15,331 nucleotides of DNA from a virus (lineage: Duplodnaviria; Heunggongvirae; Uroviricota; Caudoviricetes), in IMG/VR virus record IMGVR_UViG_2617270976_000002, positions 1 through 15,331 of that record. One strand, given 5' to 3'. The notes under the pieces are model-generated. The model worked only from the letters and a program-made list of their open reading frames with translations. It had not been told where the DNA came from and did no database searches. Shown here one piece after another: positions 1 through 12,998 of this stretch. Both the position numbers and the translations under genes were made by a program. Position 1 is the first letter of the stretch. Each line of letters starts with the position of its first letter.

Positions 1-46
1 AGCAGAATAATAATGGTGCGTAATTAATTCTGCAATCTCATCCGTT

Positions 47-1096
47 TCAAACGATTAAATCCTGAACTTCCCTGACTGTCTGCTCAAAACGTCCGGTCTC
101 CAGTTCAACGCCAATCGCACGACGCCCGAGCGCCAGTGCCGCTTTTACCGTTGAACCTGAGCCCATAAAAAAATCTGCAACCAGGTCACCCGGACGACTG
201 CTTGCGCTGATTATCTGCTGCAGCATTTCTGCCGGTTTTTCGCACGGATGTTTCCCGGGATAGAACTGCACCGGTTTATGTGTCCACACATCCGTGTACG
301 GCACCTGCGCCGTCACACCAAAATACCGCCGCAGATGCTTATATTCACTCTGCAGCTCCACATACTGCCGGTTCAGTGACGTATACGTATCCACCAGCTG
401 GTGGTGGGGCTTTTCCAGTTCACCGCGCTGATGTTTCTCTTCTGCCACCCGGGCAAACAGCGACTGTAATTTCAGATAATCGCTTTCGTTCGGTAGCTGC
501 CACTGACTGGCACTGAACCAGTGCGACACCATGTTTTTCTTTCCTGTGGCATCTGCAATCTGTTTTGCCGTTATCCCCAGGGCCGCGCGCGCATCACGAA
601 AGTAAGAAATCAGCGGGGCCATCACATGCTGTTTCAGTGCCCTGCCCTTCGCCTCATACCCGGCATCTTTCGGGCGATACGGCCCCTGATAATGTTCCGC
701 GAACAGAATGCGCTCTGTGGCGGGGAAATATGCCCTCAGGCTTTCCTTGTTGCACCCGTTCCAGCGTCCGGACGGCTTCGCCCAGATAATATGGTTCAGC
801 ACACTGAAGCGTTCACGCATCATGATTTCAATGTCAGACGCCAGGCGATGGCCACAGAACAGGTAAAGACTTCCGGCAGGTTTCAGCACCCGCCAGAACT
901 GCGCCAGACACTGGTCCAGCCACTTCAGGTAATCATCGTCGCCCTTCCACTGGTTATCCCAGCCCTCAGGCTTCACTTTAAAGTACGGCGGGTCCGTGAC
1001 TATCAGGTCAACAGAATTTTCGGGTAACGACCGGATAAATTCCAGGCAGTCAGCGTTGATCAACTCACAACTGGATATTTTTACAGTGTTAAACAT
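47..1096 (-). CDS. DNA N6-adenine methyltransferase (beta-class amino-MTase)
   Basis: 349-aa ORF. Catalytic motif DPPY (…DLIVTDPPYFK…) lies near the N-terminus and the AdoMet-binding motif FxGxG (…DFFMGSGSTVKAA…) near the C-terminus, which is the beta-class order. DPPY rather than SPPY/F favours N6-adenine specificity (family knowledge). Confidence 0.85.
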   Translation of the reverse strand: MFNTVKISSCELINADCLEFIRSLPENSVDLIVTDPPYFKVKPEGWDNQWKGDDDYLKWLDQCLAQFWRVLKPAGSLYLFCGHRLASDIEIMMRERFSVLNHIIWAKPSGRWNGCNKESLRAYFPATERILFAEHYQGPYRPKDAGYEAKGRALKQHVMAPLISYFRDARAALGITAKQIADATGKKNMVSHWFSASQWQLPNESDYLKLQSLFARVAEEKHQRGELEKPHHQLVDTYTSLNRQYVELQSEYKHLRRYFGVTAQVPYTDVWTHKPVQFYPGKHPCEKPAEMLQQIISASSRPGDLVADFFMGSGSTVKAALALGRRAIGVELETGRFEQTVREVQDLIV

Positions 1097-1232
1097 GGAT
1101 CATTAAGCCTGTCTCTGATAGGCTCATTCTGCTTTTGCGCAAAGCAGATGGGCCTGAGGTTTGCTTGTGATCCGGACGCATGAGCAGATGGCTGGTGAGT
1201 GCCCCTAACACCCACCAGCCGCCCATTTACCA

Positions 1233-1261
1233 CAAATAAAAAAGCCTTCAGGACTGAAGGC
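1233..1261 (-). terminator. Rho-independent terminator downstream of the small winged-helix gene
   Basis: Minus strand reads GCCTTCA-GTCC-TGAAGGC followed by TTTTTTATTTG: 7-bp GC-rich stem, 4-nt loop, U-tract. It overlaps the last codons of the 1248..1445 CDS. Confidence 0.6.
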
Positions 1262-1445
1262 GTCTGTAACAACCGAACTGATAGTCTGCCAGACCCGCCA
1301 TAACCAGCTGGGTCAGTATTAACTGGCAGCGTTCGCGTGAAAGGTAAGTATTCTGCGCAATCTCCCTGACTGTCGCCGGGTCGGTAACGCTTAATTCATT
1401 AAACACCACTCTGGCGGTTTCTGTCATATCCTGCTGTTTTAGCAT
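1248..1445 (-). CDS. small winged-helix-like protein (about 66 aa), FaeA/PapI-like by composition
   Basis: ORF track gives 1248..1580, but its first 45 codons run across the terminator hairpin at 1569-1596. The internal ATG at 1443-1445 (MLKQQDMTETARVVF…) follows a purine-rich RBS-like stretch. Family resemblance is weak and from memory. Confidence 0.5.
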   Translation of the reverse strand: MLKQQDMTETARVVFNELSVTDPATVREIAQNTYLSRERCQLILTQLVMAGLADYQFGCYRRLQS

Positions 1446-1568
1446 GTCTTTTTCCCTTTTCCGGTTAACGTGACATACCAATAACTCTTGTCGAAAAAGC
1501 CAGCAAGCTGAAAGACCCGTATTCGCAACCACCAGCGCGTTTACTGTACTGACGCGATTTTCGGACAT

Positions 1569-1596
1569 AAAAAAAACCACCTGGCGGTGGTTTTTT
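1569..1596 (-). terminator. strong intrinsic terminator (bidirectional architecture), candidate tR'-like
   Basis: Plus strand AAAAAAAA-CCACC-TGGC-GGTGG-TTTTTT; on the minus strand the stem is followed by eight U. Sits about 60 nt downstream of the 231-aa ORF stop. Confidence 0.7.
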
Positions 1597-1599
1597 CTT

Positions 1600-1672
1600 A
1601 CTTTGCCATCACGTACAAAATCGGCAAAATATCAGATTTATACGAAACATACGCGATTTAATTGACTTTTGC
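1600..1672 (-). promoter_or_regulatory. candidate late-type promoter between the Q-like gene and the terminator
   Basis: Minus strand carries TTGCAA, 17 nt, TATGTT, and a separate TATAAA, all within about 70 nt upstream of the terminator. Hexamer matching only; position relative to a Q-like gene is the main support. Confidence 0.25.
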
Positions 1673-2353
1673 AATATCTCGTCGTGAAAAGGTCGCTTTT
1701 TGTTGCGCTCTTATTTTCACGGAGCAAATCAAGGATTCTCTATCGAGGCGCTTAAAAATATCGCACATCTCACGCCAGTAGTTCGCATAATTATGGCTCC
1801 AGTTATCAGGCTTAACTCCACACAGTCTGGCAAGCTCCTGTCTCTGGTAGACCTCACACCCGGTAACCCATCCTCTGACATCCTGTGCCGCCAGCCAGAT
1901 CAACTTCTTCACACGCTCCAGCGTTTTCACTGCAATTTTTCTGGAGCCGGACTGAGTTTTAAATTCACTCCACACCCACTGCGTTATCGCGATCTGATGC
2001 TCCCAGCAAATGTTTCCGCCATAACACCACAACAACCACGCCTTCTGATGTTCTTCCAGTTCCAGAACGGCACGCCGCCACGATGATGTTGCAAACTCAA
2101 CAGGACTGACCAGCGCAATTGATGAGCCTTTCGCCAGTGATTGTTTACCCTGGATCGGGGGATTATCCCGCGTGATCATTTTTCCGGTTACCTCATCGCG
2201 GTAACGAATTTTTTTGCGTCTGTAACGCCCTGTATCGAACAGGGCATTTTCCTGCCAGGCTTCCAGCTGGCATTTTGTCGACCCACTGAGATCTGCAGTG
2301 GCAATCATGAGTTGCTCACGAACAAACTGTAAATACTGGTTATTCATGCACAC
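1658..2353 (-). CDS. putative late-gene antiterminator Q-like protein (function uncertain)
   Basis: 231-aa ORF with GTG start. It lies directly downstream of the rusA-like gene, where Q sits in phage 82-type lambdoid phages, and is followed by a promoter-like stretch and a strong terminator. It has no lambda-Q zinc-finger motif, so the function is inferred from synteny only. Confidence 0.4.
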   Translation of the reverse strand: MCMNNQYLQFVREQLMIATADLSGSTKCQLEAWQENALFDTGRYRRKKIRYRDEVTGKMITRDNPPIQGKQSLAKGSSIALVSPVEFATSSWRRAVLELEEHQKAWLLWCYGGNICWEHQIAITQWVWSEFKTQSGSRKIAVKTLERVKKLIWLAAQDVRGWVTGCEVYQRQELARLCGVKPDNWSHNYANYWREMCDIFKRLDRESLICSVKIRAQQKATFSRRDIAKVN

Positions 2354-2621
2354 CCACCTCTGTAATTCTTATCTCCAGCCGTCCACCAGATACTGGCTGG
2401 CCACGTACAATATTGATTTCATCAAACTGCTCATCGTCCATTAACAACCCCGCGTGCGTCAGCGCATCCAGTGGTGCTTTCAGAATATTGTCCAGGTCAC
2501 GACGACGCTTATCCGGTGGCTCTGCAATAATTTTTATTGCCAGCCGTCCGGACAGGCTTAATTTCAGTCGCTGCTGGCGAACAATAAGCGCCACTGAGGG
2601 CTTTCCTAAACTCATATCCAC
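2340..2621 (-). CDS. rusA: RusA-family Holliday-junction resolvase, N-terminally short
   Basis: …AIKIIAEPPDKRRRDLDNILKAPLDALTHAGLLMDDEQFDEINIV…GGRLEIRITE matches the conserved core of E. coli RusA (…[40 protein letters not shown]…GGRLELTITE, recalled). The frame is closed by TGA just upstream of the GTG start, so roughly 30 residues of the usual N-terminus are not encoded. Confidence 0.7.
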   Translation of the reverse strand: MDMSLGKPSVALIVRQQRLKLSLSGRLAIKIIAEPPDKRRRDLDNILKAPLDALTHAGLLMDDEQFDEINIVRGQPVSGGRLEIRITEVGVHE

Positions 2622-2781
2622 GTCTGCGGTAGTTATGAATCAGCCATTCGGCCTGTTCTTCAGTACAGGGATCGTGCTGATACCAGTCATATTTGAATGC
2701 GTGAGAACGCCACCCGTGCCTGCTGGCAAAGGCAGAATCAGAATTGCGAAATTTGAAATTATGCGCCATTGTCATCTCCAA
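2509..2781 (-). CDS. hypothetical protein (90 aa) overlapping the rusA-like start in another frame
   Basis: TTG-start ORF whose 3' 110 nt overlap the rusA-like ORF out of frame. Its N-terminal half (MAHNFKFRNSDSAFASRHGWRSHAFKYDWYQHDPCTEEQAEWLIH) does not resemble a RusA N-terminus. Could be a real small gene or a frameshift remnant. Confidence 0.3.
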   Translation of the reverse strand: MEMTMAHNFKFRNSDSAFASRHGWRSHAFKYDWYQHDPCTEEQAEWLIHNYRRRGYEFRKALSGAYCSPAATEIKPVRTAGNKNYCRATG

Positions 2782-2828
2782 TGGCGCTGCAGGTTGCCAG
2801 TTGTTCAGGCTGGCTCACGTATTATAAC

Positions 2829-3002
2829 TTATTCCCGAACTACCTTGAAACCGAGTCTTTCCAAGTATTCAATGAATGCCTCAACAGATAACACTACATG
2901 ATCATCAGGAATTAACGCTGTGTAGGTAATACCCCCATTCTCAACGCGCACAGCATAGAGGCCATCTTCACTAAAAATTTCACGTAATTCTTCGATTTTC
3001 AT
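2829..3002 (-). CDS. small hypothetical protein (57 aa)
   Basis: Hand-translated, below the ORF-track length cutoff: MKIEELREIFSEDGLYAVRVENGGITYTALIPDDHVVLSVEAFIEYLERLGFKVVRE. A GGAAGGA RBS sits about 8 nt upstream of the ATG at 3000-3002. Confidence 0.45.
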   Translation of the reverse strand: MKIEELREIFSEDGLYAVRVENGGITYTALIPDDHVVLSVEAFIEYLERLGFKVVRE

Positions 3003-3124
3003 CTTCAGAATCCTTCCAGATAAATAGCTCTTCCCCTTCGGGGTCCATCCCTCTTCTCCCTGCGCGCTACTTAAGTATTTTTGATTCTATTCCGGCACCA
3101 TCTAAAACTTCAAACGCGTTGAAA

Positions 3125-3155
3125 ATAAAAACAAAAACCCGCCGAAGCGGGTTAA
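3125..3155 (-). terminator. intrinsic terminator downstream of hok
   Basis: Minus strand CCCGC-TTCG-GCGGG followed by TTTTTGTTTTTATTTT: 5-bp GC stem with a UUCG tetraloop and a U-tract. Confidence 0.6.
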
Positions 3156-3221
3156 GTGCGGGTGCGTTGAGGATGCCTGACACATCAGAGGTGGCGAGGG
3201 ATTTCTCCCCCGCCCGGTCTC

Positions 3222-3377
3222 TTACTCCTCAGGTTCGTAAGCTGTGAAGACAGCGACCTCCGTCTGGCCGGTTCGGATTCGTACCTCGCAGAGGTCTTTC
3301 CTCGTTACCAGTGCCGTCACTATGACGGTTAAACAGATGACGATCAGGGCGATTAGCATCGCCTTTTGCTGCTTCAT
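3222..3377 (-). CDS. hok: Hok/Gef-family membrane toxin (HokD/RelF-like, 51 aa)
   Basis: MKQQKAMLIALIVICLTVIVTALVTRKDLCEVRIRTGQTEVAVFTAYEPEE has the Hok signature: single transmembrane helix, then conserved RK.LCE..IR…EVA.F.AYE. Matches my recollection of E. coli HokD/RelF. An AAGGAG SD sits 9 nt upstream of this ATG. Confidence 0.85.
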   Translation of the reverse strand: MKQQKAMLIALIVICLTVIVTALVTRKDLCEVRIRTGQTEVAVFTAYEPEE

Positions 3378-3434
3378 AGCCTGCTTCTCCTTGCCTTTCG
3401 GCACGTAAGAGGCTAACCTACGTGTGTAGAGCAT
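3222..3434 (-). CDS. mok: Mok-like in-frame upstream extension of hok (70 aa)
   Basis: Upstream ATG at 3432-3434 opens MLYTRRLASYVPKGKEKQA in frame with hok. This resembles the N-terminus of MokC (MLNTCRVPLTDRKVKEKRA…, recalled), the reading frame that modulates Hok translation. Confidence 0.5.
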   Translation of the reverse strand: MLYTRRLASYVPKGKEKQAMKQQKAMLIALIVICLTVIVTALVTRKDLCEVRIRTGQTEVAVFTAYEPEE

Positions 3435-3668
3435 AGATATGGCCTCAGATTAATGTTAAGCGTCTTGCCGGACGCGTAATGTTAACTGGGGCTTTTCTCT
3501 ATCTGCCTTTTGGTGTTCATGCCTGAGACAGATAGCCTCAAGCACCCGCTGCAATTCTACTTAACTCTCCTTTTCCCGCAAACCGTTTTTATCCCCAGCG
3601 GCAAATCGAATACACCACCAGCGCCACCGCCATCGCAATTCCTACCGTTGTTAATGCTTCAGGCCAGG

Positions 3669-3974
3669 TCATCGTAAAATATCCTCCACGCTTATCAGTC
3701 CGTTCCGCTCCAGATAACTCATCGCCTTATCCGGTAATTTGCAGTCTGGCTTCGCTTTCCTCAGTTGCCAGGTTAACTGCTTTACCAGCATGGTTAACTC
3801 ATCGACCAGACGCTGATATCCCACTGGTTTGTATTCATGCAATTTACCGGCTGGCTCTGCTGCCAGCGATGCCAGCGCAATCCGTGCCAGTTCCATTTGT
3901 TCACCACGGGTAAGCCCGTTTTCAAGCGGGTTTTTAATGAACAATTCAATACGTTCTTTGGTAATAGTGGTCAT
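3669..3974 (-). CDS. hypothetical protein (101 aa)
   Basis: Six-frame ORF with ATG start, same orientation as neighbours and tightly packed; no recognisable motif. Confidence 0.6.
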   Translation of the reverse strand: MTTITKERIELFIKNPLENGLTRGEQMELARIALASLAAEPAGKLHEYKPVGYQRLVDELTMLVKQLTWQLRKAKPDCKLPDKAMSYLERNGLISVEDILR

Positions 3975-3984
3975 GTGTTACTCC

Positions 3985-4248
3985 TTAACCCGCAGTGCTT
4001 TCAACTGATGAGGGGAACAAAATCTTTTCATCAAACCCTGCATTCATATCATGGACAGCAACACACCAATCCATTGACGAACGATTATCAAGAGCCTCCA
4101 TGATTTCATCCATGCGGCGCAGGTCATACAGGTAAATGCTTTTATCGCCAATGGTGTAAAAACCAATTTTTTTCGGTGATGGACAGCGATCAAGAACGTC
4201 CTGTAATTCGCTCAACCATGCTTGTTCTTTTTTTGTCAAAGTTGCCAT
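3985..4248 (-). CDS. hypothetical protein (87 aa)
   Basis: ORF with ATG start preceded by AAGGAGAG. Its 5' junction sequence is duplicated at the next gene upstream. Confidence 0.6.
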   Translation of the reverse strand: MATLTKKEQAWLSELQDVLDRCPSPKKIGFYTIGDKSIYLYDLRRMDEIMEALDNRSSMDWCVAVHDMNAGFDEKILFPSSVESTAG

Positions 4249-4249
4249 A

Positions 4250-4741
4250 TCACTCTCCTTTGATGCGAATGCCAGTGGTACTCATTCTCCTGATTTCCCA
4301 GAGCACACGAGGAACACCACCGTTTCCGACCGGATCGCGTTTACTCCGCAGGGCGACGCTTGATTCCGCCCAGCTTTTTCTTGGAGGAAGCTCTTTCACA
4401 CGAACAAAACCAGCTGCGCGGAGAGATGCTCCTGATTCATCTGCCTGGGTGTACGTAATACAACGTTGATAACCCATAGCCTTTGCTGCCCGCCAGACAG
4501 CACCATAAAGCGCGCTGTTAGCGTTGCGTTCTCCTGTGGTACATGTGCGATTTACTTCAAGCGTTAATCCATCGTCCAAATGTCGTGCAACAGGTCTACC
4601 GGCTGTCGCCACACCTATCAATTCTCCGGCATCATTTCTCAGACCAATGCTGAATTTATGCCCCACCGGGGGTTTATTGTGTCGGTGATGTCTGGATATA
4701 AACGCCTTCGCAACACGAAGAGTAACCGGTGAAATTTGCAT
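4250..4741 (-). CDS. hypothetical protein (about 163 aa), possibly acetyltransferase-like
   Basis: ORF track gives 4250..4780. The ATG at 4739-4741 (MQISPVTLRVAKAF…) has a strong AAGGAGAG RBS and sits 2 nt after the upstream stop, so I prefer it. C-terminal half (…NANSALYGAVWRAAKAMGYQRCITYTQADESGASLRAAGF…) vaguely resembles a GNAT-type motif. Confidence 0.55.
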   Translation of the reverse strand: MQISPVTLRVAKAFISRHHRHNKPPVGHKFSIGLRNDAGELIGVATAGRPVARHLDDGLTLEVNRTCTTGERNANSALYGAVWRAAKAMGYQRCITYTQADESGASLRAAGFVRVKELPPRKSWAESSVALRSKRDPVGNGGVPRVLWEIRRMSTTGIRIKGE

Positions 4742-4743
4742 TC

Positions 4744-5103
4744 TCACTCTCCTTTGATGCCAATGTTTACAGACTGGCAAGCCTCTTTGAGCACCCAGTC
4801 AACAGCGTCTTTCCATGCTCCGGTTTCGACTGGCGGATTCTCACGCTTTACCTGTTCATAAAAGCGCACAGCTTTAACCAGTCCTTCTGATGTCACCGAA
4901 GCTGGCGGGGCCGTGAATAACGCCTGAATTTCATAGTTTGGTCTGTCGTTACAATCCTCTTTTGTCGGGACATATTTCCAGTCACCAACCCACTGCTTCC
5001 CCTGAAAGTCTGTAACGCCTTTTTTCACGTAGCGATATCGCCATGCCACTGGTTTTGCCTGCCCTGCCTTTTCATGCCCTTCCTGATAATTAATCTCGCT
5101 CAT
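4744..5103 (-). CDS. hypothetical protein (119 aa)
   Basis: ORF with ATG start. Ends …NIGIKGE*, the same C-terminal pentapeptide and stop context as the 4250..4741 gene. Confidence 0.6.
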   Translation of the reverse strand: MSEINYQEGHEKAGQAKPVAWRYRYVKKGVTDFQGKQWVGDWKYVPTKEDCNDRPNYEIQALFTAPPASVTSEGLVKAVRFYEQVKRENPPVETGAWKDAVDWVLKEACQSVNIGIKGE

Positions 5104-5104
5104 T

Positions 5105-5276
5105 CATCGCCCCACTCATCACAATATGCTTCGACCGGTGTTTTCCCTGCTTCATAATCATCACGCCATGCTTCAGCATCAGCGGCACTTCCACCGCGTA
5201 ACTCTGCATAATCCATTAACAGTTCATGCCATTCTTCAAAACTGGCGTTATATTTAGTTGAACCAAAATCAGCCAT
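5105..5276 (-). CDS. small acidic protein (57 aa)
   Basis: Hand-translated, below the ORF-track cutoff: MADFGSTKYNASFEEWHELLMDYAELRGGSAADAEAWRDDYEAGKTPVEAYCDEWGDE. Start overlaps the upstream gene's stop by 8 nt; stop abuts the next start. Confidence 0.45.
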
Positions 5277-5451
5277 TTTGTTCTTCCTCTTCGTCTTTTA
5301 TTTCGTGGTATGAGTAATTGCAGTAGTTAAAGAAAATATCTTTAGCTTCATCCTGTATTTCATCTGGTGTTGCATCATCATCCACTTCGAATTCATCCTC
5401 GAAATCTCCACCGGCTATTCCCGTTTCAATAATTATTTTGAATTTTCGCAT
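5269..5451 (-). CDS. small highly acidic protein (60 aa)
   Basis: MRKFKIIIETGIAGGDFEDEFEVDDDATPDEIQDEAKDIFFNYCNYSYHEIKDEEEEQNG: about one third of residues are D or E. Confidence 0.5.
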   Translation of the reverse strand: MRKFKIIIETGIAGGDFEDEFEVDDDATPDEIQDEAKDIFFNYCNYSYHEIKDEEEEQNG

Positions 5452-5579
5452 TTCACTACCGCCCTTTCGGACGGCCTCCTGATGTTCTGAGGGTGCAGGA
5501 ATCCCTCCGGTTAAGGATTTAATAAAAATCGTTTCTGATTTAAATCTTCAGTATTTAGTTGTTAGTCGGTTTATAGCCT

Positions 5580-5891
5580 TTATGCTTCGGCCTTATTTCT
5601 CAGCCATACACAAACCGGGCCATCTTCGGTGTCATGTATTGAACCAATAAACCATCCATTGCCCTCTGGTCGTTCCGGTTCCCATGCAGAAATATCAGCA
5701 TCACACGCATCAAGGTCAGCACATCCTTCATCTCTGAAGCAGAGGACGTATTGAAGATTATTTTCCTCCATCCAGGCGTTAAACTCTTCCGTTGAAATAT
5801 ATTCCCGACCGTCACAGAATTTTTCATATTCAGGATGCGTCCAGTAGCCATATTCATCACGTACTACTGGTATTTCTTTAATTTCATTCAT
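5580..5891 (-). CDS. hypothetical protein (103 aa)
   Basis: ATG-start ORF whose start overlaps the upstream stop by 8 nt. Acidic and Trp-rich. The alternative frame 5600..5860 looks like a shadow. Confidence 0.6.
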   Translation of the reverse strand: MNEIKEIPVVRDEYGYWTHPEYEKFCDGREYISTEEFNAWMEENNLQYVLCFRDEGCADLDACDADISAWEPERPEGNGWFIGSIHDTEDGPVCVWLRNKAEA

Positions 5892-6138
5892 TTCTGTTCT
5901 CCCACGTTTTCAGACTTTCACCACAGAACGGACAAAATGAAACCCGAACTGGTAATTTAGAAAATTCACCGGAACGCAACATCACAAAATCAGGACCGCG
6001 AGTTAAACTCTCATTCCAGATTTTGTATATCAGCAGACCTTTTCGCATCGTGTATTCAGCATCACGCTCAAGGGACTTTGCCAGTGCTGCACATGGTTCT
6101 ATCTTGTTGCCATTAACCTGGCATTTTGATTCACTCAC
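5884..6138 (-). CDS. small zinc-ribbon-like protein (84 aa)
   Basis: Cys at both ends (…SKCQVNGNKIEPCAAL… and …SFCPFCGES…), i.e. CxxC-type pairs. Start overlaps the upstream stop (ATGA). Confidence 0.6.
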   Translation of the reverse strand: MSESKCQVNGNKIEPCAALAKSLERDAEYTMRKGLLIYKIWNESLTRGPDFVMLRSGEFSKLPVRVSFCPFCGESLKTWENRNE

Positions 6139-6563
6139 CGCACCACCTCCTCAAAATTCCCCTGATAAAACGCCAGTACACGCTGCATAGCTTCACTCTT
6201 CCGGCACTCGCGACAGATTATGTTTAGGCGCCTGTCGTAGCGGCGTATTTCGCCGTCTGGTAATAGCCAGATAAGGTCCGGATCAACCACAGATGGTTTC
6301 TTCAGCTTTGCCCTTGAGAGTTTTTTGCGGGCGTTTTGCCAGTCCTTGCGCGCCTGCTCAGACGGGAATACTCCGTAACCGGAATTGTAAACATCACCAC
6401 TGGCGGCCAGCTCCATGCATAAACGACCGACAGACGCATGACTGACACCAATTTCATCCGATAACTGCCGAATCGTGCCTCGTCCGTTAAGGCGTACGAA
6501 TTCCACGATCAGCCCCTTAATTTTTTCCCGCTCTTCTGGTGTAAATGCTCTTGTCATAAGCAC
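6135..6563 (-). CDS. HTH/winged-helix DNA-binding protein (142 aa)
   Basis: …GRGTIRQLSDEIGVSHASVGRLCMELAASGDV… has a helix-turn-helix pattern; basic C-terminal region. Confidence 0.6.
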   Translation of the reverse strand: MLMTRAFTPEEREKIKGLIVEFVRLNGRGTIRQLSDEIGVSHASVGRLCMELAASGDVYNSGYGVFPSEQARKDWQNARKKLSRAKLKKPSVVDPDLIWLLPDGEIRRYDRRLNIICRECRKSEAMQRVLAFYQGNFEEVVR

Positions 6564-6572
6564 CTCCGGAGA

Positions 6573-7316
6573 TCACTTTGTTGTCGGTGAATGAACCGGA
6601 ATATCAGCAATCGAACTGAAAATATCCCGGTGTTTATTCAGCTCCCGCAGCGCGGCGCAGACTCGCTCCCACTTCTGAACCTGACCTTTTGCCCGGCGCA
6701 GCTCACGGTTAGCCACATGCAGCGATGGTAAAATCAGACCATCCGGATGTTTTCTGGTGAACGACGGCTGTGACTGCACTGTGACCGCCACACTTTCCGT
6801 TTTTATTTCTTCCTGTGTTTCTGCTTCCCGAACTGGTAACGCAACACCTGCTGGCTGAGGAAAGGCTTTACCATCGGTTTCCGCTACGGATGCAGCTTCC
6901 GGCTCTGCCGGTAAATCAGCGCCCGGTATGCAGTAACGAAATTTACCGCCCTGATTCACGCGAATCAGACGCCCTTTGCTGATTGCCATGGCCAGCGATG
7001 AATTCGCCCGGCGGGAGGTAATCCCGAACATCAGTGCCAGCTCATCCGCCGTTTGTGGGCCATGTTGTTCAATCGCCTCAGTCAGCATTTGCGCTGTCAC
7101 TTTCGGTACCGGTGACACCGGTTCACTTTCACCAGCCTGAATCAGCCACCACATCGAACCCTTGTTATCCGCTTCACCGCGGCGCTTCAGTTTCCACAGT
7201 TCGTTGACCGCATCTTTACGGCTGATTCCAAGGCGGGCCGCCACTACCTGTGAAGAGGCTCTTTTCAGTGCTTTCAGTGCGTCAAATACGGTTTCCATTA
7301 AAATTTCCTCCGACAA
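6573..7316 (-). CDS. two-domain winged-helix protein (247 aa)
   Basis: Two HTH-like segments (…[26 protein letters not shown]… and …[30 protein letters not shown]…) separated by a Pro/Ala/Glu-rich linker. Lies immediately downstream of the P-like gene. Confidence 0.6.
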
Positions 7317-7331
7317 AATCGTTTCTCAGAT

Positions 7332-7997
7332 TCAAATAAAACCAGCTGCCTTCCGGCGTTCGTATTCCTGTTTCAGCCGTTCAATTGGCGTTGGCCCTTG
7401 CGGGTGTTTCGCCCCTTCCAGTTGTCGTCGCACTGGCGGAACACTCATCCCGTTACCAACATGCTTTGCCCATTTCGTCAGTTGCCGTTCTGCAAGTCGT
7501 TTTAACTCACCCTGCGTCATCTGGCGCTCAATCCCTCTGGTACGCATTTCGAGGCAGATGTGGTACAGCACAGGCTGTGGCCACGGGTATTTATCACTCC
7601 CGTCGTATCGCCAGGATTCATTGCGCCAGCGCCGGTACTCTTCCATCACTGCATCCACCGTAAGACCAAATGGATTTGCCCCACTCTCCGAAATCAGTGC
7701 AACAAACTCAGCCAGGTCCGGGGGCCACGTTTCACCCGCCCGGCAGCGGTCCATGCACTGACGGCAGACCAGCCGGATTTGCTGTTCAGTCATCGCGCCA
7801 ATCTGGGCAATCCAGAGCTTCGAAGGTGCGGCCCCGTTCTTCTGGGTCCAGCGGTTCGAATAAACCTCCCCCATGAGTTCCCACAGCTTCCAGACCGTTT
7901 CCGTCGCTGATAAATCCGTTTTCACGTTCCCACTGCTCACGTGCTGCCCGAATTTCCTGAACTGCCCGTGATGCGGTGCCACCTGGTGCTGCTGCAT
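7332..7997 (-). CDS. lambda-P-like replication protein (DnaB helicase loader); start uncertain
   Basis: …ETWPPDLAEFVALISE… and …YPWPQPVLYHICLEMRTRGIERQMTQGELKRLAERQLTKW… parallel lambda P (…PFLPSPGQFVAWCRE… and …YPWKSNAHYWLVTNLYQNMRANALTDAELRRKAADELVHM…, recalled). The longest ORF overlaps the O-like gene by about 210 nt; the true start is probably internal. Confidence 0.7.
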   Translation of the reverse strand: MQQHQVAPHHGQFRKFGQHVSSGNVKTDLSATETVWKLWELMGEVYSNRWTQKNGAAPSKLWIAQIGAMTEQQIRLVCRQCMDRCRAGETWPPDLAEFVALISESGANPFGLTVDAVMEEYRRWRNESWRYDGSDKYPWPQPVLYHICLEMRTRGIERQMTQGELKRLAERQLTKWAKHVGNGMSVPPVRRQLEGAKHPQGPTPIERLKQEYERRKAAGFI

Positions 7998-8832
7998 GGT
8001 TTACCCCCTTGCTGACTGGCTTAACCTGCGCCCTGACGTGATTTACGTGACGGGCGAATTTCTGCTCCCACTGAACCTGCGTGAAAACTTTCCCCTCCGC
8101 TGCCCAGTAGTCCCGGAAAGCGGCAAGTTCAGCAGGTGTAAATTCCGGCTCCGGCAAAGCCATCCCCCACAACGCAGCCCGTCGTCGAAAATCCGGCGAC
8201 GGATGCCAGTCATCGACCATCGGAAATTTCCCGATGGGTTCGCTCAGTCCATCCAGGGATGCAGGTTCTGCTGCCTGCAACGGCGTACCACTCGACTCAC
8301 TGGTCGGAGCACTCTCGCGCACGTGCGCGTTATGTGTGGGGTTTAATTCTTTATCTGTATCTTTATCTGTCGTGACTCGTCGTGACATGTCGTGACATAT
8401 GCGTGACTCGTCGTGACACCCCTCATTCTGTTTTCGTAATTTATCCCTCTCGCGCTGCGCTCTCTTGCGCTCTGCCGGGGATTTCGCGGTTTGTGAAACG
8501 TTGCCATTGTCCTCTTTCAGTACCTGGCGTTTTTCCCATCCGGTGATTAAATCTCCATCAAGTACCCGCCCCTGCATTGCCTGTAAAATTGAATCAATTA
8601 CTTCTTCCGTCACATCAAGCGCACTTGCTAAATCTTCCGTCGTGACATCAATGTGACCACGTAGTGACACGCCGTGACATGTCGTGACATTTCGTGACGC
8701 GTTCACCAGAAGGTGGATATACACCGCCATCACTGTTGCAATTGGCTGTCCTGACACCCTGGAAATTGTTCGCCACTTAGGATCATTTGGCATGTCATGC
8801 CATAACCTGAGCCAGGCATTAGCCATACTCAC
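7786..8832 (-). CDS. O-like replication initiator with DnaT-like C-terminal domain
   Basis: 348 aa. The C-terminal segment …IGKFPMVDDWHPSPDFRRRAALWGMALPEPEFTPAELAAFRDYWAAEGKVFTQVQWEQKFARH… closely parallels E. coli DnaT (…[62 protein letters not shown]…, recalled). Both iteron arrays lie inside this gene, and it sits directly upstream of the P-like gene. Confidence 0.8.
   Translation of the reverse strand: MSMANAWLRLWHDMPNDPKWRTISRVSGQPIATVMAVYIHLLVNASRNVTTCHGVSLRGHIDVTTEDLASALDVTEEVIDSILQAMQGRVLDGDLITGWEKRQVLKEDNGNVSQTAKSPAERKRAQRERDKLRKQNEGCHDESRICHDMSRRVTTDKDTDKELNPTHNAHVRESAPTSESSGTPLQAAEPASLDGLSEPIGKFPMVDDWHPSPDFRRRAALWGMALPEPEFTPAELAAFRDYWAAEGKVFTQVQWEQKFARHVNHVRAQVKPVSKGVNHAAAPGGTASRAVQEIRAAREQWERENGFISDGNGLEAVGTHGGGLFEPLDPEERGRTFEALDCPDWRDD
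8369..8417. repeat. iteron array A: five direct (G)TCGTGAC repeats at 10-11 bp phasing, next to an AT-rich tract
   Basis: CGTGAC at about 8371, 8381, 8391, 8402 and 8412. Preceded at 8341-8370 by an AT-rich tract containing a tandem CTTTATCTGT repeat. Located in the linker-coding middle of the O-like gene. Confidence 0.6.
8641..8698. repeat. iteron array B: six direct (C)GTGAC repeats at about 10 bp phasing
   Basis: GTGAC at about 8641, 8653, 8664, 8673, 8683 and 8693, plus one inverted copy (GTCAC) near 8612. Located in the N-terminal-domain coding part of the O-like gene. Confidence 0.55.
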
Positions 8833-8897
8833 CTCTTCTGATACCGAATCTTTTTACTCACGAATTACCGGAAGCGATCCGGTATGAATATTGTCAG

Positions 8898-9323
8898 TCA
8901 ATGCACAACCACAATATTTCCCGCCGGGCCACCACGATTCATCTGGTTGAAACCAGCGATCGCCACTGCGACAAAATCATCAGCGTCTCTCACCAGTCGT
9001 TCCCGCGTCTCCACCAGCTCCCGAAAATAAGCTGAACTGTGGCTGCGCATTCGGGCCACCAGCAGAGGCGGCATTGCTTTTTCGATCGCTGGTAACAACG
9101 CCTGAATTTTTTTAACCGCATCAGGAGTGTCTTTCTCCACCCAGCGGAAAATTTTCTGGGTATTGCGAGCCAGGGCTTCCGGATGGCTGTCGTCATATAA
9201 TTCCGGGAACGTCATACCAAGCTCAAAATAAGCCCGGGTTATTTCAGCTGCCGGAACTTTTTCACCGTCCGGATGCGCCCAGGCATTCATCGCCATGCGG
9301 ATGTGCTCATGCCTGATTTTCAT
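8898..9323 (-). CDS. YdaT-like protein (occupies the cII position)
   Basis: 141 aa. MKIRHEHI… start, internal …KKIQALLPAIEKAMPPLL… and C-terminal …VVVH resemble Rac prophage YdaT as I recall it. Start overlaps the Cro-like gene's end by 17 nt. Confidence 0.6.
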   Translation of the reverse strand: MKIRHEHIRMAMNAWAHPDGEKVPAAEITRAYFELGMTFPELYDDSHPEALARNTQKIFRWVEKDTPDAVKKIQALLPAIEKAMPPLLVARMRSHSSAYFRELVETRERLVRDADDFVAVAIAGFNQMNRGGPAGNIVVVH

Positions 9324-9582
9324 GAATCAACTCCGATGCATTTGGTGTGTTAGCCTTGAATCCAACAGGTAAGCCGTCGGTTGGATTCGGGTAAATATCA
9401 GGCCGGAGTTCATGAGGTGTAACCTCGAAATTCGTTACTTCAGCAACACGTAATGCTTTTTCAGGGCTGAATCTTTCATAGCCCCCCAGCACTCGACTTA
9501 CATGCACCTGAGATAAACCCGTTAGCTTCCCAAACTGTAGCTGGGTGATATGTTTCTCTTTTAAATAGTCTCTTAAGTTCAT
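9307..9582 (-). CDS. Cro-like HTH protein (YdaS-type)
   Basis: ORF track start is a TTG at 9588; I prefer the ATG at 9580-9582 (MNLRDYLKEKHITQLQFGKLTGLSQVHVSRV…), which has a GAAGG RBS. HTH near the N-terminus; …ELRPDIYPNP… resembles the ELRPDI motif of YdaS (recalled). Divergent from the repressor gene. Confidence 0.7.
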   Translation of the reverse strand: MNLRDYLKEKHITQLQFGKLTGLSQVHVSRVLGGYERFSPEKALRVAEVTNFEVTPHELRPDIYPNPTDGLPVGFKANTPNASELIHENQA

Positions 9583-9689
9583 AGCCAACCTTCTACGTTA
9601 TGCCCCGAGCAAATATTAGCCCCACTAATTTTAAAGATCAATAGCCAGGCTATCTTTGATAATATCGGTAAAACAAATAAACTCTATGT
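9583..9689. promoter_or_regulatory. immunity-region control region: divergent promoters with TAGCC-type operator half-sites
   Basis: Leftward promoter on the minus strand: TTGATC (9636-9641), 17 nt, TAATAT (9613-9618). Rightward extended -10 TGaTAATAT at about 9657-9665. Perfect palindrome ATAGCCAGGCTAT at 9641-9653, with related sites TTAGCCCCACTAA (9616-9628) and ATAGCCAACC (9581-9590). Confidence 0.5.
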
Positions 9690-10151
9690 ATGAAAAAAAC
9701 ACGCGAAGTGATTGCAACTCCAGCAGCGAGCAAGAATTTAAAAGCCGCATGGAATGCAAGAAAAAAAGAGCTGAAGCTGACTCAAGAGCTGGCGGCTGAG
9801 TTGTTGGGATTCGAATCTCAAGGCACCGTTAGCCAGTATCTGAACGGCAAGATACCGGTAAATACCGACGCTGCGCTAAAATTTGCGGCTCTGTTAAAGG
9901 TAAAACCAGAGGACATTCGAGAAGACCTTAAAGACTTAATGAATTATGTAAGATCATCAGATACTTATGATGATAGCTTTTCAGGCAAAGGATGGAGGCT
10001 GGTCAATGAAGAACAGGCAGAGTTACTTAACCTCTTCGAGATTCTACCTGCGTCAGAAAAAGCCAAACTCCTTAACCAGCTACGTGGACTAAACAAGCTC
10101 TACGAGGAAGCCTTCGAGAACATGCTGGCACTAAAGAAACGTAACCAGTAG
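9690..10151 (+). CDS. DicA-like prophage repressor (HTH_XRE, no S24 peptidase domain)
   Basis: 153 aa. HTH …LTQELAAELLGFESQGTVSQYLNG…; C-terminal …ELLNLFEILPASEKAKLLNQLRGLNKLYEEAFENMLALKKR parallels the DicA C-terminus (…ELLELFNALPESEQDTQLAEMRARVKNFNKLFEELLKARQR, recalled). No Ala-Gly/Ser-Lys autocleavage module is visible. Confidence 0.75.
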   Translation: MKKTREVIATPAASKNLKAAWNARKKELKLTQELAAELLGFESQGTVSQYLNGKIPVNTDAALKFAALLKVKPEDIREDLKDLMNYVRSSDTYDDSFSGKGWRLVNEEQAELLNLFEILPASEKAKLLNQLRGLNKLYEEAFENMLALKKRNQ

Positions 10152-10176
10152 CCACCGCTCACTACCCCATCCACAA

Positions 10177-10207
10177 CAAAAAAACCGACGTCTTAGTCGG
10201 TTTTTTT
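10177..10207 (+). terminator. intrinsic terminator after the repressor gene
   Basis: AAAAAAA-CCGAC-GTCTTA-GTCGG-TTTTTTT: symmetric A-tract, stem and U-tract, about 25 nt after the stop. Confidence 0.65.
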
Positions 10208-10304
10208 GTGCCATAACTTCTGCAAATCAGCTGTATAACTAATATTTTTCCCTTGAAAAAACATTTACATAGTTACCAAATCAAAAATATCATACGCCAT
10301 ACTG

Positions 10305-10333
10305 TTGACTTAAAATATCCGTGTTACTAATAT
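10305..10333 (+). promoter_or_regulatory. strong sigma70-type promoter for the ydfA-dicF-dicB operon
   Basis: TTGACT (10305-10310), 17-nt spacer, TAATAT (10328-10333). The first gene starts about 70 nt downstream. Confidence 0.5.
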
Positions 10334-10404
10334 TTCTATCAAGAACAACACGGCGCTGTAGGTTTTAGTTCCGCCACCCGGCGTTAAGGGGAAATGAGGT
10401 CAAC

Positions 10405-10557
10405 ATGGATATGCTCAATCTTGGCAACAACGAATCTCTGGTATGTGGTGTGTTCCCCAACCAGGACGGCACATTCACCGCGATGACGTATACCAAAAGT
10501 AAAACGTTTAAAACCGCAGCTGGCGCGCATCGCTGGTTAGCAAGAAACACTGACTGA
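10405..10557 (+). CDS. ydfA: YdfA-like small protein (50 aa)
   Basis: Hand-translated, below the ORF-track cutoff: MDMLNLGNNESLVCGVFPNQDGTFTAMTYTKSKTFKTAAGAHRWLARNTD, with GAGGT RBS. Size and position (first gene after the DicA-like repressor) match Qin ydfA. Replaces the antisense ORF 10365..10550. Confidence 0.55.
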   Translation: MDMLNLGNNESLVCGVFPNQDGTFTAMTYTKSKTFKTAAGAHRWLARNTD

Positions 10558-10568
10558 TGAGGTTGACG

Positions 10569-10907
10569 ATGGAATTTAAAGATTTACCTCCTTCAATCCA
10601 GGAGATTGCAGCACACACGCTTCGTCATCGTCTGAACGAACTTGAATTGGAATCGGTAACAAAAAAAGACACTGATAATATGGCTCGTAATGTGCGCGAT
10701 GCGTTTACTGGGCTGTTTTCAGATACAGCTTTAAATATCCATGGCACAGAGGATACAGCAAAACAATTTGCAGAAAAAGAAGTGGAAGATCCCAGTTCAA
10801 AGAGCCAGAAACAGCCAAACAACCATGAAATTAACGAACTGCTTCTGGCAACAGGCTTCATAAATATTAACGAATATGAACGCCGTAAAAAAATGTTATC
10901 TGATTAA
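10569..10907 (+). CDS. hypothetical protein (112 aa)
   Basis: ORF track gives a TTG start at 10557; the ATG at 10569 (MEFKDLPPSIQEIAAHTL…) is preferred. Acidic and Lys-rich; occupies the ydfB/ydfC position. Confidence 0.55.
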   Translation: MEFKDLPPSIQEIAAHTLRHRLNELELESVTKKDTDNMARNVRDAFTGLFSDTALNIHGTEDTAKQFAEKEVEDPSSKSQKQPNNHEINELLLATGFININEYERRKKMLSD

Positions 10908-11090
10908 TCCATCAAGATATCTTTTTAGCATCAGCGTTTCTACGTTATTAAAACCATCAGATTTTAACATAGCTTCGATTCGCTGATTTAAATTGCCAAC
11001 TAACTGTTGATACTGAGTAGATGGAAGCATGTGTACCAGCTCCTTGAGAACACAATAACATGCACCAAGTTTTAACTCCTGCTCTGACAT
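10896..11090 (-). CDS. small convergent ORF (64 aa) on the strand opposite the operon
   Basis: MSEQELKLGACYCVLKELVHMLPSTQYQQLVGNLNQRIEAMLKSDGFNNVETLMLKRYLDGLIR with GGAGGA 4 nt upstream. The plus strand is closed in all frames here. Tail-to-tail overlap of 12 nt with the 112-aa gene. Confidence 0.4.
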   Translation of the reverse strand: MSEQELKLGACYCVLKELVHMLPSTQYQQLVGNLNQRIEAMLKSDGFNNVETLMLKRYLDGLIR

Positions 11091-11429
11091 TTTATCCTCC
11101 ATTGAGGTTACTGGTTGAGAATGGAGACCTCTCGTGACAGCGTGTGGTCGTGCGCCGGACACGGATAAGAATCCGGCACTGACAGTTTACTGAAAGGATA
11201 TTTCCCTGAAAAGTCAGACCATAACGCGACAGCGCACGGCGAGGTAGCTGGTTCATAGATAGCCTGTCGTTAAATTTTCGTCGACCGTGCGCTTCCGGTT
11301 GTGGCAATCCGCGAAATGGCGCGGCGGTAAGTATGGCGGGGTTATTCCTTCCCCCGTTGAGGACACCGGGTTGTCAGGTTGACCATACGCTTAAGTGACA
11401 ACCCCGCTGCAACGCCCTCTGTTATCAAT

Positions 11430-11487
11430 TTTCTGGTGACTTTTGGCGGTATCAGTTTTACTCCGTGACTGCTCTGCCGCCCTTTTT
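11430..11487 (+). ncRNA. dicF: DicF small RNA (ftsZ-targeting sRNA of Qin-type prophages)
   Basis: TTTCTGGTGACTTTTGGCGGTATCAGTTTTACTCCGTGACTGCTCTGCCGCCC followed by TTTTT matches my recollection of the 53-nt E. coli DicF almost base for base. The 3' GGCGG…CCGCC stem plus U-tract forms its terminator. Confidence 0.8.
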
Positions 11488-11768
11488 AAAGTGAATTTTG
11501 TGATGCGGTGAATGCGGCTGAGCGCACGCGGAACAGTTAAAACCAAAAACAGTGTTATGGGTGGATTCTCTGTATCCGGCGTTAATTGTTAACTGGTTAA
11601 CGTCACCTGGAGGCACCAGGCACCGCATCAACAAAGTTCACTTCGGTGATGAAAGGTAAGAGAAAATGTTGAATGTAGCTATTGAAAACCAGAACGGGTG
11701 GAATTATAGTGCACCTGCACCTCATAAAACGGGTGCCGGGCGTGGAAACCCGAAATCATTCACGGCGC

Positions 11769-11795
11769 ATAACCGCGCTCAGGCGGTTTTTTTAT
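11769..11795 (+). terminator. intrinsic terminator or attenuator in the rha leader
   Basis: AACCGC-GCTCAG-GCGGTT followed by TTTTTTT, nested in a longer inverted repeat (GCGCATAA…TTATGCG). About 170 nt upstream of the rha start. Confidence 0.45.
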
Positions 11796-11962
11796 GCGTT
11801 AAGCACAGCCACATTCGCATTATGGTGGGGCGTGCAGGGCAGCCGCAAGGCTGGCCGGGTTCCGTGATGACCGGTATTTCCACCCCTGTACGTCTCACCA
11901 CCCTTATGGTCGTGGAAAACCTCGGTGGTGAGTTAATCAAATTCATCGCGGAGGCTGCCATC

Positions 11963-12520
11963 ATGGCTACTATCCTTACCCTTTCTCACCCTGACGTAAC
12001 CATCGAAAATGGTCGCGCTGTCACTACGTCTGTTGCGATCGCCGAGTTCTTTGGCAAACGCCACGAACGAGTGTTGGATAAAATTCGCAATCTGGACTGT
12101 TCAGCAAAATTCACTGAGCACAATTTTGTGTCGAGCGAATACACCGACTCAACCGGGCGCAAACTCCCAATGTACCAAATCACCAAAAACGGCTTCGTTT
12201 TCCTGGTGATGGGGTTCACAGGTAAAAAAGCCGCAACTTTCAAAGAAGCCTACATCGCTGAGTTCGATCGCATGGAGGAAGAACTGCGCCAGAATAACGC
12301 CCCGTCTCCCGACAAAATGATTCACGGGGACGGACGCACCCTGGTTATCCGTCTCGACGAACACGGCAATATCAAATTCACTGAAACCGTTCCTGACGGC
12401 GCAATGGTCTGCACCCTGGATACCTTCCGGTTTTATCTGGAGAAACAAGGATGGACTCTTGTAAACCGGAGCGCAATTAAAAATATGACTGTGGAGCAAT
12501 TGCTAAAAATTCATTGTTGA
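11963..12520 (+). CDS. rha: Rha-family phage regulatory protein
   Basis: ORF track gives 11666..12520. The ATG at 11963 (MATILTLSHPDVTIENGRAVTTSVAIAEFFGKRHERVLDKIRNL…) has a GGAGG RBS 8 nt upstream and puts the pRha-type domain at the N-terminus, as in this family. The upstream 99 codons are Gly/Arg/Pro/His-rich and span a terminator. Confidence 0.7.
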   Translation: MATILTLSHPDVTIENGRAVTTSVAIAEFFGKRHERVLDKIRNLDCSAKFTEHNFVSSEYTDSTGRKLPMYQITKNGFVFLVMGFTGKKAATFKEAYIAEFDRMEEELRQNNAPSPDKMIHGDGRTLVIRLDEHGNIKFTETVPDGAMVCTLDTFRFYLEKQGWTLVNRSAIKNMTVEQLLKIHC

Positions 12521-12530
12521 GGACGCGATA

Positions 12531-12719
12531 ATGGAAACGTCACTACCAAACGTTAATACGTCTGACGGGTGCTTTAATATTGGTGTTCTGCTCAGTAACA
12601 GGGATTTCACCGAGGATGCAATCAATATGAGAAAATATGAACCCTACCTGCTGAATGACAATTCCATACTCTCCAGAATTGCCCTTCTTAAACTCGGTAT
12701 TTTCGGAGAGTGGCGATGA
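12531..12719 (+). CDS. dicB: DicB-like cell-division inhibitor
   Basis: METSLPNVNTSDGCFNIGVLLSNRDFTEDAINMRK… parallels E. coli DicB (MKTLLPNVNTSEGCFEIGVTISNPVFTEDAINKRK…, recalled). 62 aa, GAGGA RBS, start 11 nt after the rha stop. Confidence 0.85.
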   Translation: METSLPNVNTSDGCFNIGVLLSNRDFTEDAINMRKYEPYLLNDNSILSRIALLKLGIFGEWR

Positions 12720-12919
12720 ACACATTATTCGTACTCATTCTGACTGTACATCTCAATACTGGTGAGTCGCTTGATGCAATCACCGGCATGTACAACTCAA
12801 TGAAAGAATGCATGGCTGCCGCAGCGGAACAGAAAATTCCCGGCAACTGTTATCCGGTCGATAAAGTTATTCACATGGACAATAACGAAATCCCGGCAGG
12901 ATTAAAAACAGCGCCGTAA
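12716..12919 (+). CDS. ydfD: YdfD-like small membrane protein
   Basis: MNTLFVLILTVHLNTGESLD…MKECMAAAAEQKIPGNCYPVDKVIHMDNNEIPAGL resembles Qin YdfD (recalled). Hydrophobic N-terminus; start overlaps the dicB stop. ORF track start is a GTG at 12710. Confidence 0.7.
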   Translation: MNTLFVLILTVHLNTGESLDAITGMYNSMKECMAAAAEQKIPGNCYPVDKVIHMDNNEIPAGLKTAP

Positions 12920-12998
12920 TTAATATCCAGTTTCATTTTTATATGCCAGCAATGGCAGGGATTTGTTCACCCTTAAATCTGTAATGAGGTAAAACAAA

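Follow-up and report, generated by a model that had tools for sequence, protein, structure and literature searches.

Why should one short DNA sequence stand at both ends of a single small phage gene? The question is raised by the Caudoviricetes record IMGVR_UViG_2617270976_000002 of IMG/VR, of which positions 1 to 15,331 were analysed; this whole stretch of 15,331 nucleotides (nt) is called the window below. In it a 17-nt sequence, TCACTCTCCTTTGATGC, closes both a gene for a 163-amino-acid (aa) protein and the gene before it. The original prediction read this arrangement as the mark of a module exchanged by recombination at short conserved linkers, that is, a mobile cargo cassette. In our analysis, the 17-mer is rather probably the core of a lambdoid boundary sequence of about 27–36 nt, the linker, at which crossovers swap genes, with the bracketed gene as a single-gene unit of such exchange.

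The 17-mer matches the plus strand exactly at 4250–4266 and 4744–4760, as first noticed, and the window holds no third match when up to three mismatches are allowed. In 200 dinucleotide-preserving shuffles the expected count was 0.04, and two matches occurred in none of the 200. On the minus, coding strand the 17-mer reads GC ATC AAA GGA GAG TGA. Both the upstream gene for a 119-aa protein (4744..5103) and the 163-aa gene (4250..4741) obtain their last codons and stop from it, and its AAGGAG falls 6–7 nt 5′ of the next ATG, which is how the junction had originally been interpreted. Three details need adjustment or addition. The proteins do share a C-terminal tail, ending in NIGIKGE (119 aa) and GIRIKGE (163 aa), but the IKGE taken for a pentapeptide has four residues. 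Between stop and ATG, the upstream copy has a spacer of 2 nt (GA) and the downstream copy one of 1 nt (T), and the repeat becomes 22 nt with one mismatch when widened (4250–4271 and 4744–4765). A repeat search aligned the copies over 37 nt at 84% identity, in direct orientation with a spacing of 494.

The two copies also differ in form. The upstream copy (4744..4765, minus strand; exact 17-mer at 4744–4760) lies at the junction of the 119-aa gene with the bracketed gene, which belongs to the XF1762 family. It comprises the codons for N-I-G-I-K-G-E, the TGA that stops the 119-aa gene and, as the Shine-Dalgarno sequence serving the XF1762 gene, AAGGAG, in a variant form ending in AACATTGGCATCAAAGGAGAGTGA and followed by GA (4742–4743) and ATG (4739–4741). 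The downstream copy (4246..4275, minus strand; exact 17-mer at 4250–4266) joins the XF1762 gene to a gene for an 87-aa protein. It is near-canonical, CTGGCATTCGCATCAAAGGAGAGTGA-T-ATG, and provides G-I-R-I-K-G-E, the XF1762 stop, a Shine-Dalgarno sequence and the ATG with which the 87-aa gene begins.

This sequence is found far beyond the window. In its 3′ end, ea22 of phage lambda matches the 17-mer exactly (DNA GACGCTGGCATTCGCATCAAAGGAGAGTGA; protein MMSDAGIRIKGE and stop), its protein ending in AGIRIKGE-stop, and the 17-mer is also the hkaG/hkaF junction of phage HK620 (CGCCGCTGGCATTCGCATCAAAGGAGAGTGAGATG). With one representative taken per gene class, the consensus of the linker is (CGC)GCCGCTGGCATTCGCATCAAAGGAGAGTGA-K-ATG, in which the 17-mer is the core of about 27–36 nt. 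The linker thereby encodes (R)AAGIRIKGE and the stop of Ead/Ea22-type genes, followed by a strong Shine-Dalgarno sequence and the next start codon. Related prophages were expected to carry the 17-mer at gene boundaries, and they do so widely: an exact scan of IMG/VR viral contigs found at least 119 stretches, on which the locus counts below are based, and the 36-nt canonical form is present in 395 phage records, including HK022, the P22-like SE1, 933W, VT2-Sakai, ES18 and the P1-like P7, SJ46 and D6. The 36-nt form was also found in 2903 of 5426 complete Escherichia coli genomes, at 5901 places (288 of them on plasmids) and up to 10 times per genome.

Among the 119 listed loci, 40 have early-left markers (int, xis, ea8.5, abc2 or recT) near the linker, 33 have nin or replication genes, 7 have both and 39 neither. 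Most have one linker, which is the 3′ end of an Ead/Ea22-like gene. Two copies, with at most two mismatches, are present in 11 of the 119, where they are spaced 494–861 bp apart and enclose either a single gene or a pair. At other boundaries, including some in the two-copy loci, the junction takes a more degenerate form, AAAGGAGnGTGAkATG.

The genes that the linker joins vary freely on both sides. In every listed locus with both flanks readable, the 17-mer ends an open reading frame (ORF), and the next start is mostly 1–2 nt on. Upstream proteins were clustered on the 61 residues that precede the shared tail, and downstream proteins were clustered separately. The 127 junctions in the listed loci fall into 13 unrelated upstream and 19 downstream classes, with 46 distinct upstream/downstream combinations among the 92 scorable junctions of the matches listed. 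The genes around the copies do vary, then, as originally anticipated. Among these matches, the variant represented by the upstream copy of the window (class U2) precedes seven downstream gene classes, and the 87-aa gene is preceded elsewhere, through the same linker, by seven upstream gene classes. The case in which the 17-mer would occur only here and always with the same neighbours can be set aside, since the bracketed gene has other neighbours elsewhere. When one representative per class is compared, conservation drops abruptly outside a block of about 31–37 nt, beyond which the flanks are unrelated.

The upstream genes mostly encode mosaic Ead/Ea22-like proteins, which combine a shared N-terminus and a coiled coil with a C-terminal domain that varies. 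Among the matches listed, the linker also ends genes of three non-Ea22 families, namely XF1762, an HNH endonuclease and a membrane protein. The HNH gene (class U13, locus L112, about 1062–1608 on the reverse strand) and the gene for a 154-aa membrane protein (locus L017) have tails of the type GIRIKGE or HGIKGE, which these genes appear to have acquired as XF1762 did. The 5′ region and upstream junction of this HNH gene look frameshifted, with no clear linker there.

The conservation is also a matter of DNA and not only of peptide. A degenerate scan for any DNA encoding GIRIKGE-stop found at least 80 loci, mostly those of the 17-mer scan, and 71 of the 80 listed have one identical DNA sequence. 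The variants differ at one position, save for one more divergent sequence. The Gly and Ile codons 5′ of the 17-mer are nearly invariant across unrelated upstream classes. Judged from these sequences, identity at the DNA level fits shared DNA, through descent and transfer, better than convergent upkeep of a peptide.

The bracketed gene itself shows how such a unit may come and go. When its region was compared with the listed loci, BLAST homology endpoints clustered at 4260–4279 (15 endpoints) and 4730–4749 (11 endpoints), a test that is biased by the loci having been picked for the 17-mer. Locus L055 provides the corresponding empty site, in which a single linker connects a 119-aa-type gene to the 87-aa gene. 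There, two high-scoring segment pairs overlap on that one linker (locus positions 3303–3339) with a step in identity from 89% to 98%, and the difference from the window is a 494-bp indel, equal to the repeat spacing. Other loci show other partners or orders. In L081 the XF1762 gene is followed by a gene for a 95-aa protein; in L020 the order is permuted, with the 87-aa gene upstream of the 119-aa-type gene; and in L091 and phage Kapi1 a degenerate linker connects the XF1762 gene to a different Ea22-like gene before it, the Kapi1 copy lying in the early-left operon downstream of recT. In the 5426 E. coli genomes the XF1762 unit is present in 154, with 20 places on plasmids, whereas some part of the surrounding 1.9-kb region occurs in 3079 genomes and the whole arrangement in 26.

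Comparison with distant homologues suggests how the gene came to carry the linker. A tblastn search of phages found XF1762 homologues in phages whose hosts include Pectobacterium, Mycobacterium, Burkholderia and Synechococcus, with similarity to the 163-aa protein ending by residue 152. In the alignment, gp36 of ZF40 ends in LWEVRR and a Mycobacterium abscessus prophage protein in LWEAV. The E. coli copies go on with the 11 residues MSTTGIRIKGE, which are absent from these two non-lambdoid homologues. Because the non-lambdoid homologues stop before the tail, the linker-bearing tail seems to be an addition specific to the lambdoid setting.

The linker sequences, the combinatorial distribution of genes, the empty site and the foreign tail were observed directly; homologous recombination at the linker would explain how they arose. 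Because the same DNA joins many otherwise unrelated genes, the linker would serve as a patch of homology on which co-resident or co-infecting phage genomes could cross over. Phage Rad52-like recombinases such as Red-beta, RecT or Erf would be the likely agents, and RecA would play a smaller part. Each crossover product would retain the upstream ORF, the stop, the ribosome-binding site and the start, and since these are left intact the recombinants should be viable. The XF1762 gene would have gained the linker as its 11-aa C-terminal extension, and lying between two linkers it could enter, leave or change partners as a unit of one gene. Short or diverged homology is used by Rad52-like phage recombinases in forming mosaics, and the minimal segment for efficient pairing is 23–27 bp for Red-beta and 31–34 bp for RecA (PMC3945230). 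The canonical linker length of 27–36 nt is within the range of these published minima.

Several points weigh against this explanation. Comparative patterns do not tell a crossover within the linker apart from illegitimate joining followed by selection for junctions in which stop, ribosome-binding site and start all work. The two copies of the window share only 17 exact nt, or 22 with one mismatch, which falls short of the minimal length published for pairing, and the two would therefore be expected to excise poorly by direct recombination; exchange with genomes that have the canonical form at the downstream copy would be more plausible than such excision. In addition, the loci were mostly retrieved by the exact 17-mer, and many of the IMG/VR contigs are near-identical E. 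coli prophages, so that the locus counts are not counts of independent events. Finally, functional constraint on the Shine-Dalgarno sequence, stop and start could by itself maintain part of the linker.

The last point leads to the rival explanation that survives best. The junction may be kept for its function only, through translational coupling, through a useful GIRIKGE peptide acting as a docking or stability tag, or both, while the shuffling is illegitimate and the junction is selected afterwards. The compact layout agrees with this, as AAGGAG, stop and ATG lie within 16 nt, with the Shine-Dalgarno sequence 6–7 nt from the ATG and the stop 1–2 nt before the start. So does the looser AAAGGAGnGTGAkATG junction at other boundaries, and neither junction of the window forms notable RNA structure, the folds being no more stable than those of shuffled sequences (z of −0.10 and 0.19). 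However, conservation runs 10–20 nt 5′ of the Shine-Dalgarno sequence, over codons that have no role in translation initiation, and synonymous positions are almost invariant over 13 unrelated gene classes. The XF1762, HNH and membrane-protein genes can hardly have come by an identical 27-nt string independently, without transfer of the DNA itself. For the peptide, no function is described in the available part of the Ea22 structure paper (PMC10834534). Functional conservation may thus contribute, but it does not account for the conserved synonymous sites or for the same string on unrelated genes, and as the sole explanation we regard it as unlikely.

A bolder possibility would have the linker be a recognition or stimulation site of a dedicated process, involving the linker-tagged HNH enzyme or another nin-region nuclease, with integron-like shuffling across early-left and nin regions and P1-like phages; or it would have GIRIKGE be a functional tag on every gene that joins. 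We consider this version a long shot. The plainer version, in which a dedicated cassette system, site-specific or driven by a nuclease, acts on the linker (attC-like, or homing stimulated by a phage HNH endonuclease with its cut in or close to the linker), seems to us a slimmer prospect still. The HNH endonuclease gene that itself ends in the linker, the HNH genes annotated beside Ead/Ea22-like genes in ArgO145 and the recurrence of linker-bracketed single-gene units in 11 of the 119 listed loci all speak for it. Against this, the linker has no dyad symmetry or hairpin, most listed linker loci have no HNH gene adjoining the linker, and breakpoints also fall inside genes (at about 4880 and at 3850–3869), as general recombination predicts. 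No recombinase was present among the ten large ORFs of the window that were tested (methylase, Q, RusA, DUF1627, P, O-like, YdaT, helix-turn-helix repressor, Rha/Ash and one ORF lacking a Pfam match), and small ORFs were not exhaustively searched. An inverted-repeat search found none at the junctions and Rfam gave no match there; an attC-like integron site was accordingly rejected, with neither inverted repeat nor hairpin in the RNA folds.

A local accident in the window, such as tandem duplication, slippage or a chance repeat, has practically no standing and was refuted: the window does hold only two copies, in direct orientation and 494 bp apart, but two matches never arose in the shuffles, each copy is found singly in many other loci with different partners, and what lies between them is no duplicated DNA but an intact gene that belongs to a widespread family.

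Recombination at a lambdoid boundary sequence thus stays the preferred reading. As for the mobile cargo cassette first proposed, exchange at a conserved linker is supported by the combinations of genes and the empty site, but an autonomous element is not, given the lack of a recombinase in the tested ORFs, of a hairpin and of a promoter or terminator of its own. A scan for promoters and terminators found none at either junction, where the spacers are 1–2 nt. Integron cassettes (attC, IntI) offer a partial parallel, being promoterless single genes that have a short recurring sequence on either side and are shuffled between arrays, but the linker has no imperfect inverted-repeat hairpin and no integrase partner among the ORFs tested, and its recurring sequence is coding sequence plus ribosome-binding site.

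Another known class of accessory gene is the moron, reportedly described by Juhala, Hendrix et al. in 2000. A moron has its own promoter and terminator and often a distinct composition. The 163-aa gene resembles morons in being a patchily distributed accessory gene between conserved prophage genes; unlike morons, it is coupled to its neighbours by 1–2-nt spacers and its guanine-plus-cytosine (GC) content is unremarkable. This GC content is 0.51, with 0.40 at third codon positions, against 0.42–0.49 in the neighbours. Comparing the GC content and codon usage of 4250–4741 with its flanks, which had been proposed as a check for foreign origin, hence did not set the gene apart; it is uninformative because all the small genes of the region are heterogeneous. 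A moron was rejected on these grounds, the gene having no promoter or terminator of its own and a composition unremarkable beside its heterogeneous neighbours.

The closest known relatives of the linker are found in lambdoid phages. For HK620, Clark et al. reportedly listed seven boundary sequences. The proposal that short boundary sequences are foci of recombination in lambdoid phages goes back to Susskind and Botstein (1978) and Clark et al. (2001, J Mol Biol 311:657), as cited in PMC3029335. Like them, the linker is short and is kept at gene or module boundaries between non-homologous flanks in early ('metabolic') regions. It has unrelated flanks, it is shared by several lambdoid reference phages, and breakpoints coincide with it, although in a biased set of loci. 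HK620, the phage of Clark et al., has the exact linker sequence at hkaG/hkaF. A boundary sequence in the sense of Susskind and Botstein and of Clark et al. is therefore the best explanation of the linker. The linker departs from the classic boundary sequences in working at single small accessory genes rather than at functional modules, and in overlapping coding sequence, whereby unrelated proteins come to have a C-terminal peptide in common. The P1-like records P7, SJ46 and D6 contain it as well. In a full-text search of the open-access literature, the DNA string, IRIKGE and GIRIKGE were not found in relevant text, and the epsilon34 paper discusses neither ead nor boundary sequences.

The likely enzymology for the linker is the relaxed recombination by Rad52-like recombinases (De Paepe et al. 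2014, PMC3945230; Martinsohn et al. 2008, PMC2327257). The exchanges in those studies were measured over hundreds of bases of diverged homology, whereas the linker has about 30 nt. The linker-tailed genes also resemble the mosaic Ead/Ea22 proteins of lambda and Shiga toxin (Stx) phages, which pair a common N-terminus and a conserved coiled coil with C-terminal domains that can be interchanged (PMC10834534). According to that paper, the C-terminal sequences of three Stx-phage variants share only a 16-aa segment, and this in two of them. By comparison, the larger set examined here shares the (A)GIRIKGE end across Ea22 C-terminal classes and non-Ea22 genes; this tail, AGIRIKGE in full, is common to unrelated proteins because of the linker.

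The bracketed gene (4250..4741, minus strand; NCBIfam NF045478, phrog_1384) scored 204.7 bits over residues 3–136 against NF045478, the XF1762 equivalog model, for a cut-off of 50, and its RefSeq name is XF1762 family protein. PHROG labels it Mom-like (phrog_1384), while its score against the Pfam Mom family (PF25680), 22.4 bits, is under the gathering threshold of 27.1. By these matches the protein belongs to the XF1762 family and would have a Mom-like acyltransferase fold, and its gene is a putative DNA-modification gene. The upstream 119-aa gene (4744..5103, minus strand; phrog_660) has, in its C-terminal 48 or so residues, the C-terminal module of one Ead/Ea22-like class. It has no Pfam match and lacks the Ead/Ea22 N-terminal segment and coiled-coil signature (IPR025153), so it appears to be a fragment or mosaic and not a full Ea22. 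The downstream 87-aa gene (3985..4248, minus strand) belongs to phrog_1714.

On the minus strand, the gene order is YdaT-like, O-like with a DnaT domain, P, DUF1627, DUF977 (Ren-like) and a string of small genes, and then the 119-aa, 163-aa, 87-aa and 101-aa genes (the last with an Ea22-type N-terminus), hok/mok with sok RNA, RusA, Q and a DNA methylase. Read in this way, the minus strand of the window is the rightward early operon of a lambdoid prophage, and this surrounding order places the linker pair in a nin-type region.

Other breakpoints accompany those at the linkers. A second recurrent boundary lies at the junction of the 87-aa and 101-aa genes (3960–3990, minus strand), with 24 homology endpoints at 3970–3989. 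In many related loci, downstream genes start with the same 5′ block, ATGACCACTATTACCAAAGAACGTAT (MTTITKER or MSAITKER), which is also the start of hkaE in HK620; this suggests a conserved 5′-end linker that would complement the 3′ IKGE linker. Intragenic breakpoints fall at about 4880–4890 in the 119-aa gene (8 endpoints) and at about 3850–3869 in the 101-aa Ea22-N-like gene (30 endpoints), so both genes would themselves be mosaics of Ea22 modules.

Several further features of the window were observed. Just downstream of the shuffled small genes, within the nin-type region, a hok/mok-type toxin ORF (3222..3434, minus strand; Pfam HOK_GEF) is overlapped by a sok antitoxin RNA (3372–3547; Rfam RF01794, 117 bits), giving a feature that spans 3222–3547 on the minus strand. 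On the plus strand, three regulatory RNAs stand in a row, DicF (11431–11482), isrK (11717–11793) and C4 antisense RNA (11818–11905), of which isrK and C4 overlap the 5′ part of an Ash/Rha-domain ORF (11666..12520). Downstream of Q, a gene at 47–1096 (minus strand) encodes a 349-aa N6/N4 DNA methylase (PF01555). Counting the Mom-like gene, the prophage would thus have two putative functions in DNA modification within 5 kb.

Outside phage collections, the 17-mer must be read with care. In 596 gigabases of genome-assembly contigs about 70 chance matches of the 17-mer are expected, which makes that scan largely uninformative on taxonomic spread. Of 38 linker-like matches there, 32 have the flanks of lambda ea22 and lie mostly on short contigs of unrelated taxa. 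These contigs, with the flanking bases of lambda (ACGCTGGCATTC and GATCGGTT; matches L129, L136, L152, L154, L158, L161, L170, L186 and about 24 more), measure from 0.3 to at least 8 kb, most of them under 2 kb, and come from assemblies that include Streptomyces, Prevotella, Streptococcus, Bradyrhizobium and Vibrio; contamination with lambda DNA is the most likely source. In Dehalococcoidia (L123, L125, L142) and Flavobacteriaceae (L124, L135, L139), the same 17-mer has conserved flanks of its own that are unrelated to the phage linker, and it presumably belongs there to a gene conserved within each clade. Real enterobacterial matches in the assemblies are few (Escherichia sp. and Shimwellia). 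An XF1762/Mom-like gene was also seen on E. coli plasmid records of 42–58 kb (H152, H153, H155). With XF1762 and the linker on plasmids and the linker in P1-like phages, exchange seems to extend beyond integrated lambdoid prophages.

The duplicated linker fits a clear but ordinary example of the long-proposed swapping of single genes at linkers. It gives a quantified case of the conserved-linker route to phage mosaicism, which is usually thought to be rare compared with illegitimate recombination: a string of about 30 nt is present in about half of the complete E. coli genomes, often several times in each, and joins dozens of gene combinations. The linker marks points at which accessory genes are exchanged, and the cargo in this case is a rare XF1762/Mom-like putative DNA-modification gene. 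In recombineering of lambdoid prophages, the linker could serve as a natural landing pad. Its reach and prevalence are striking, yet they lie within existing ideas of lambdoid mosaicism and leave the current picture of phage evolution unchanged.

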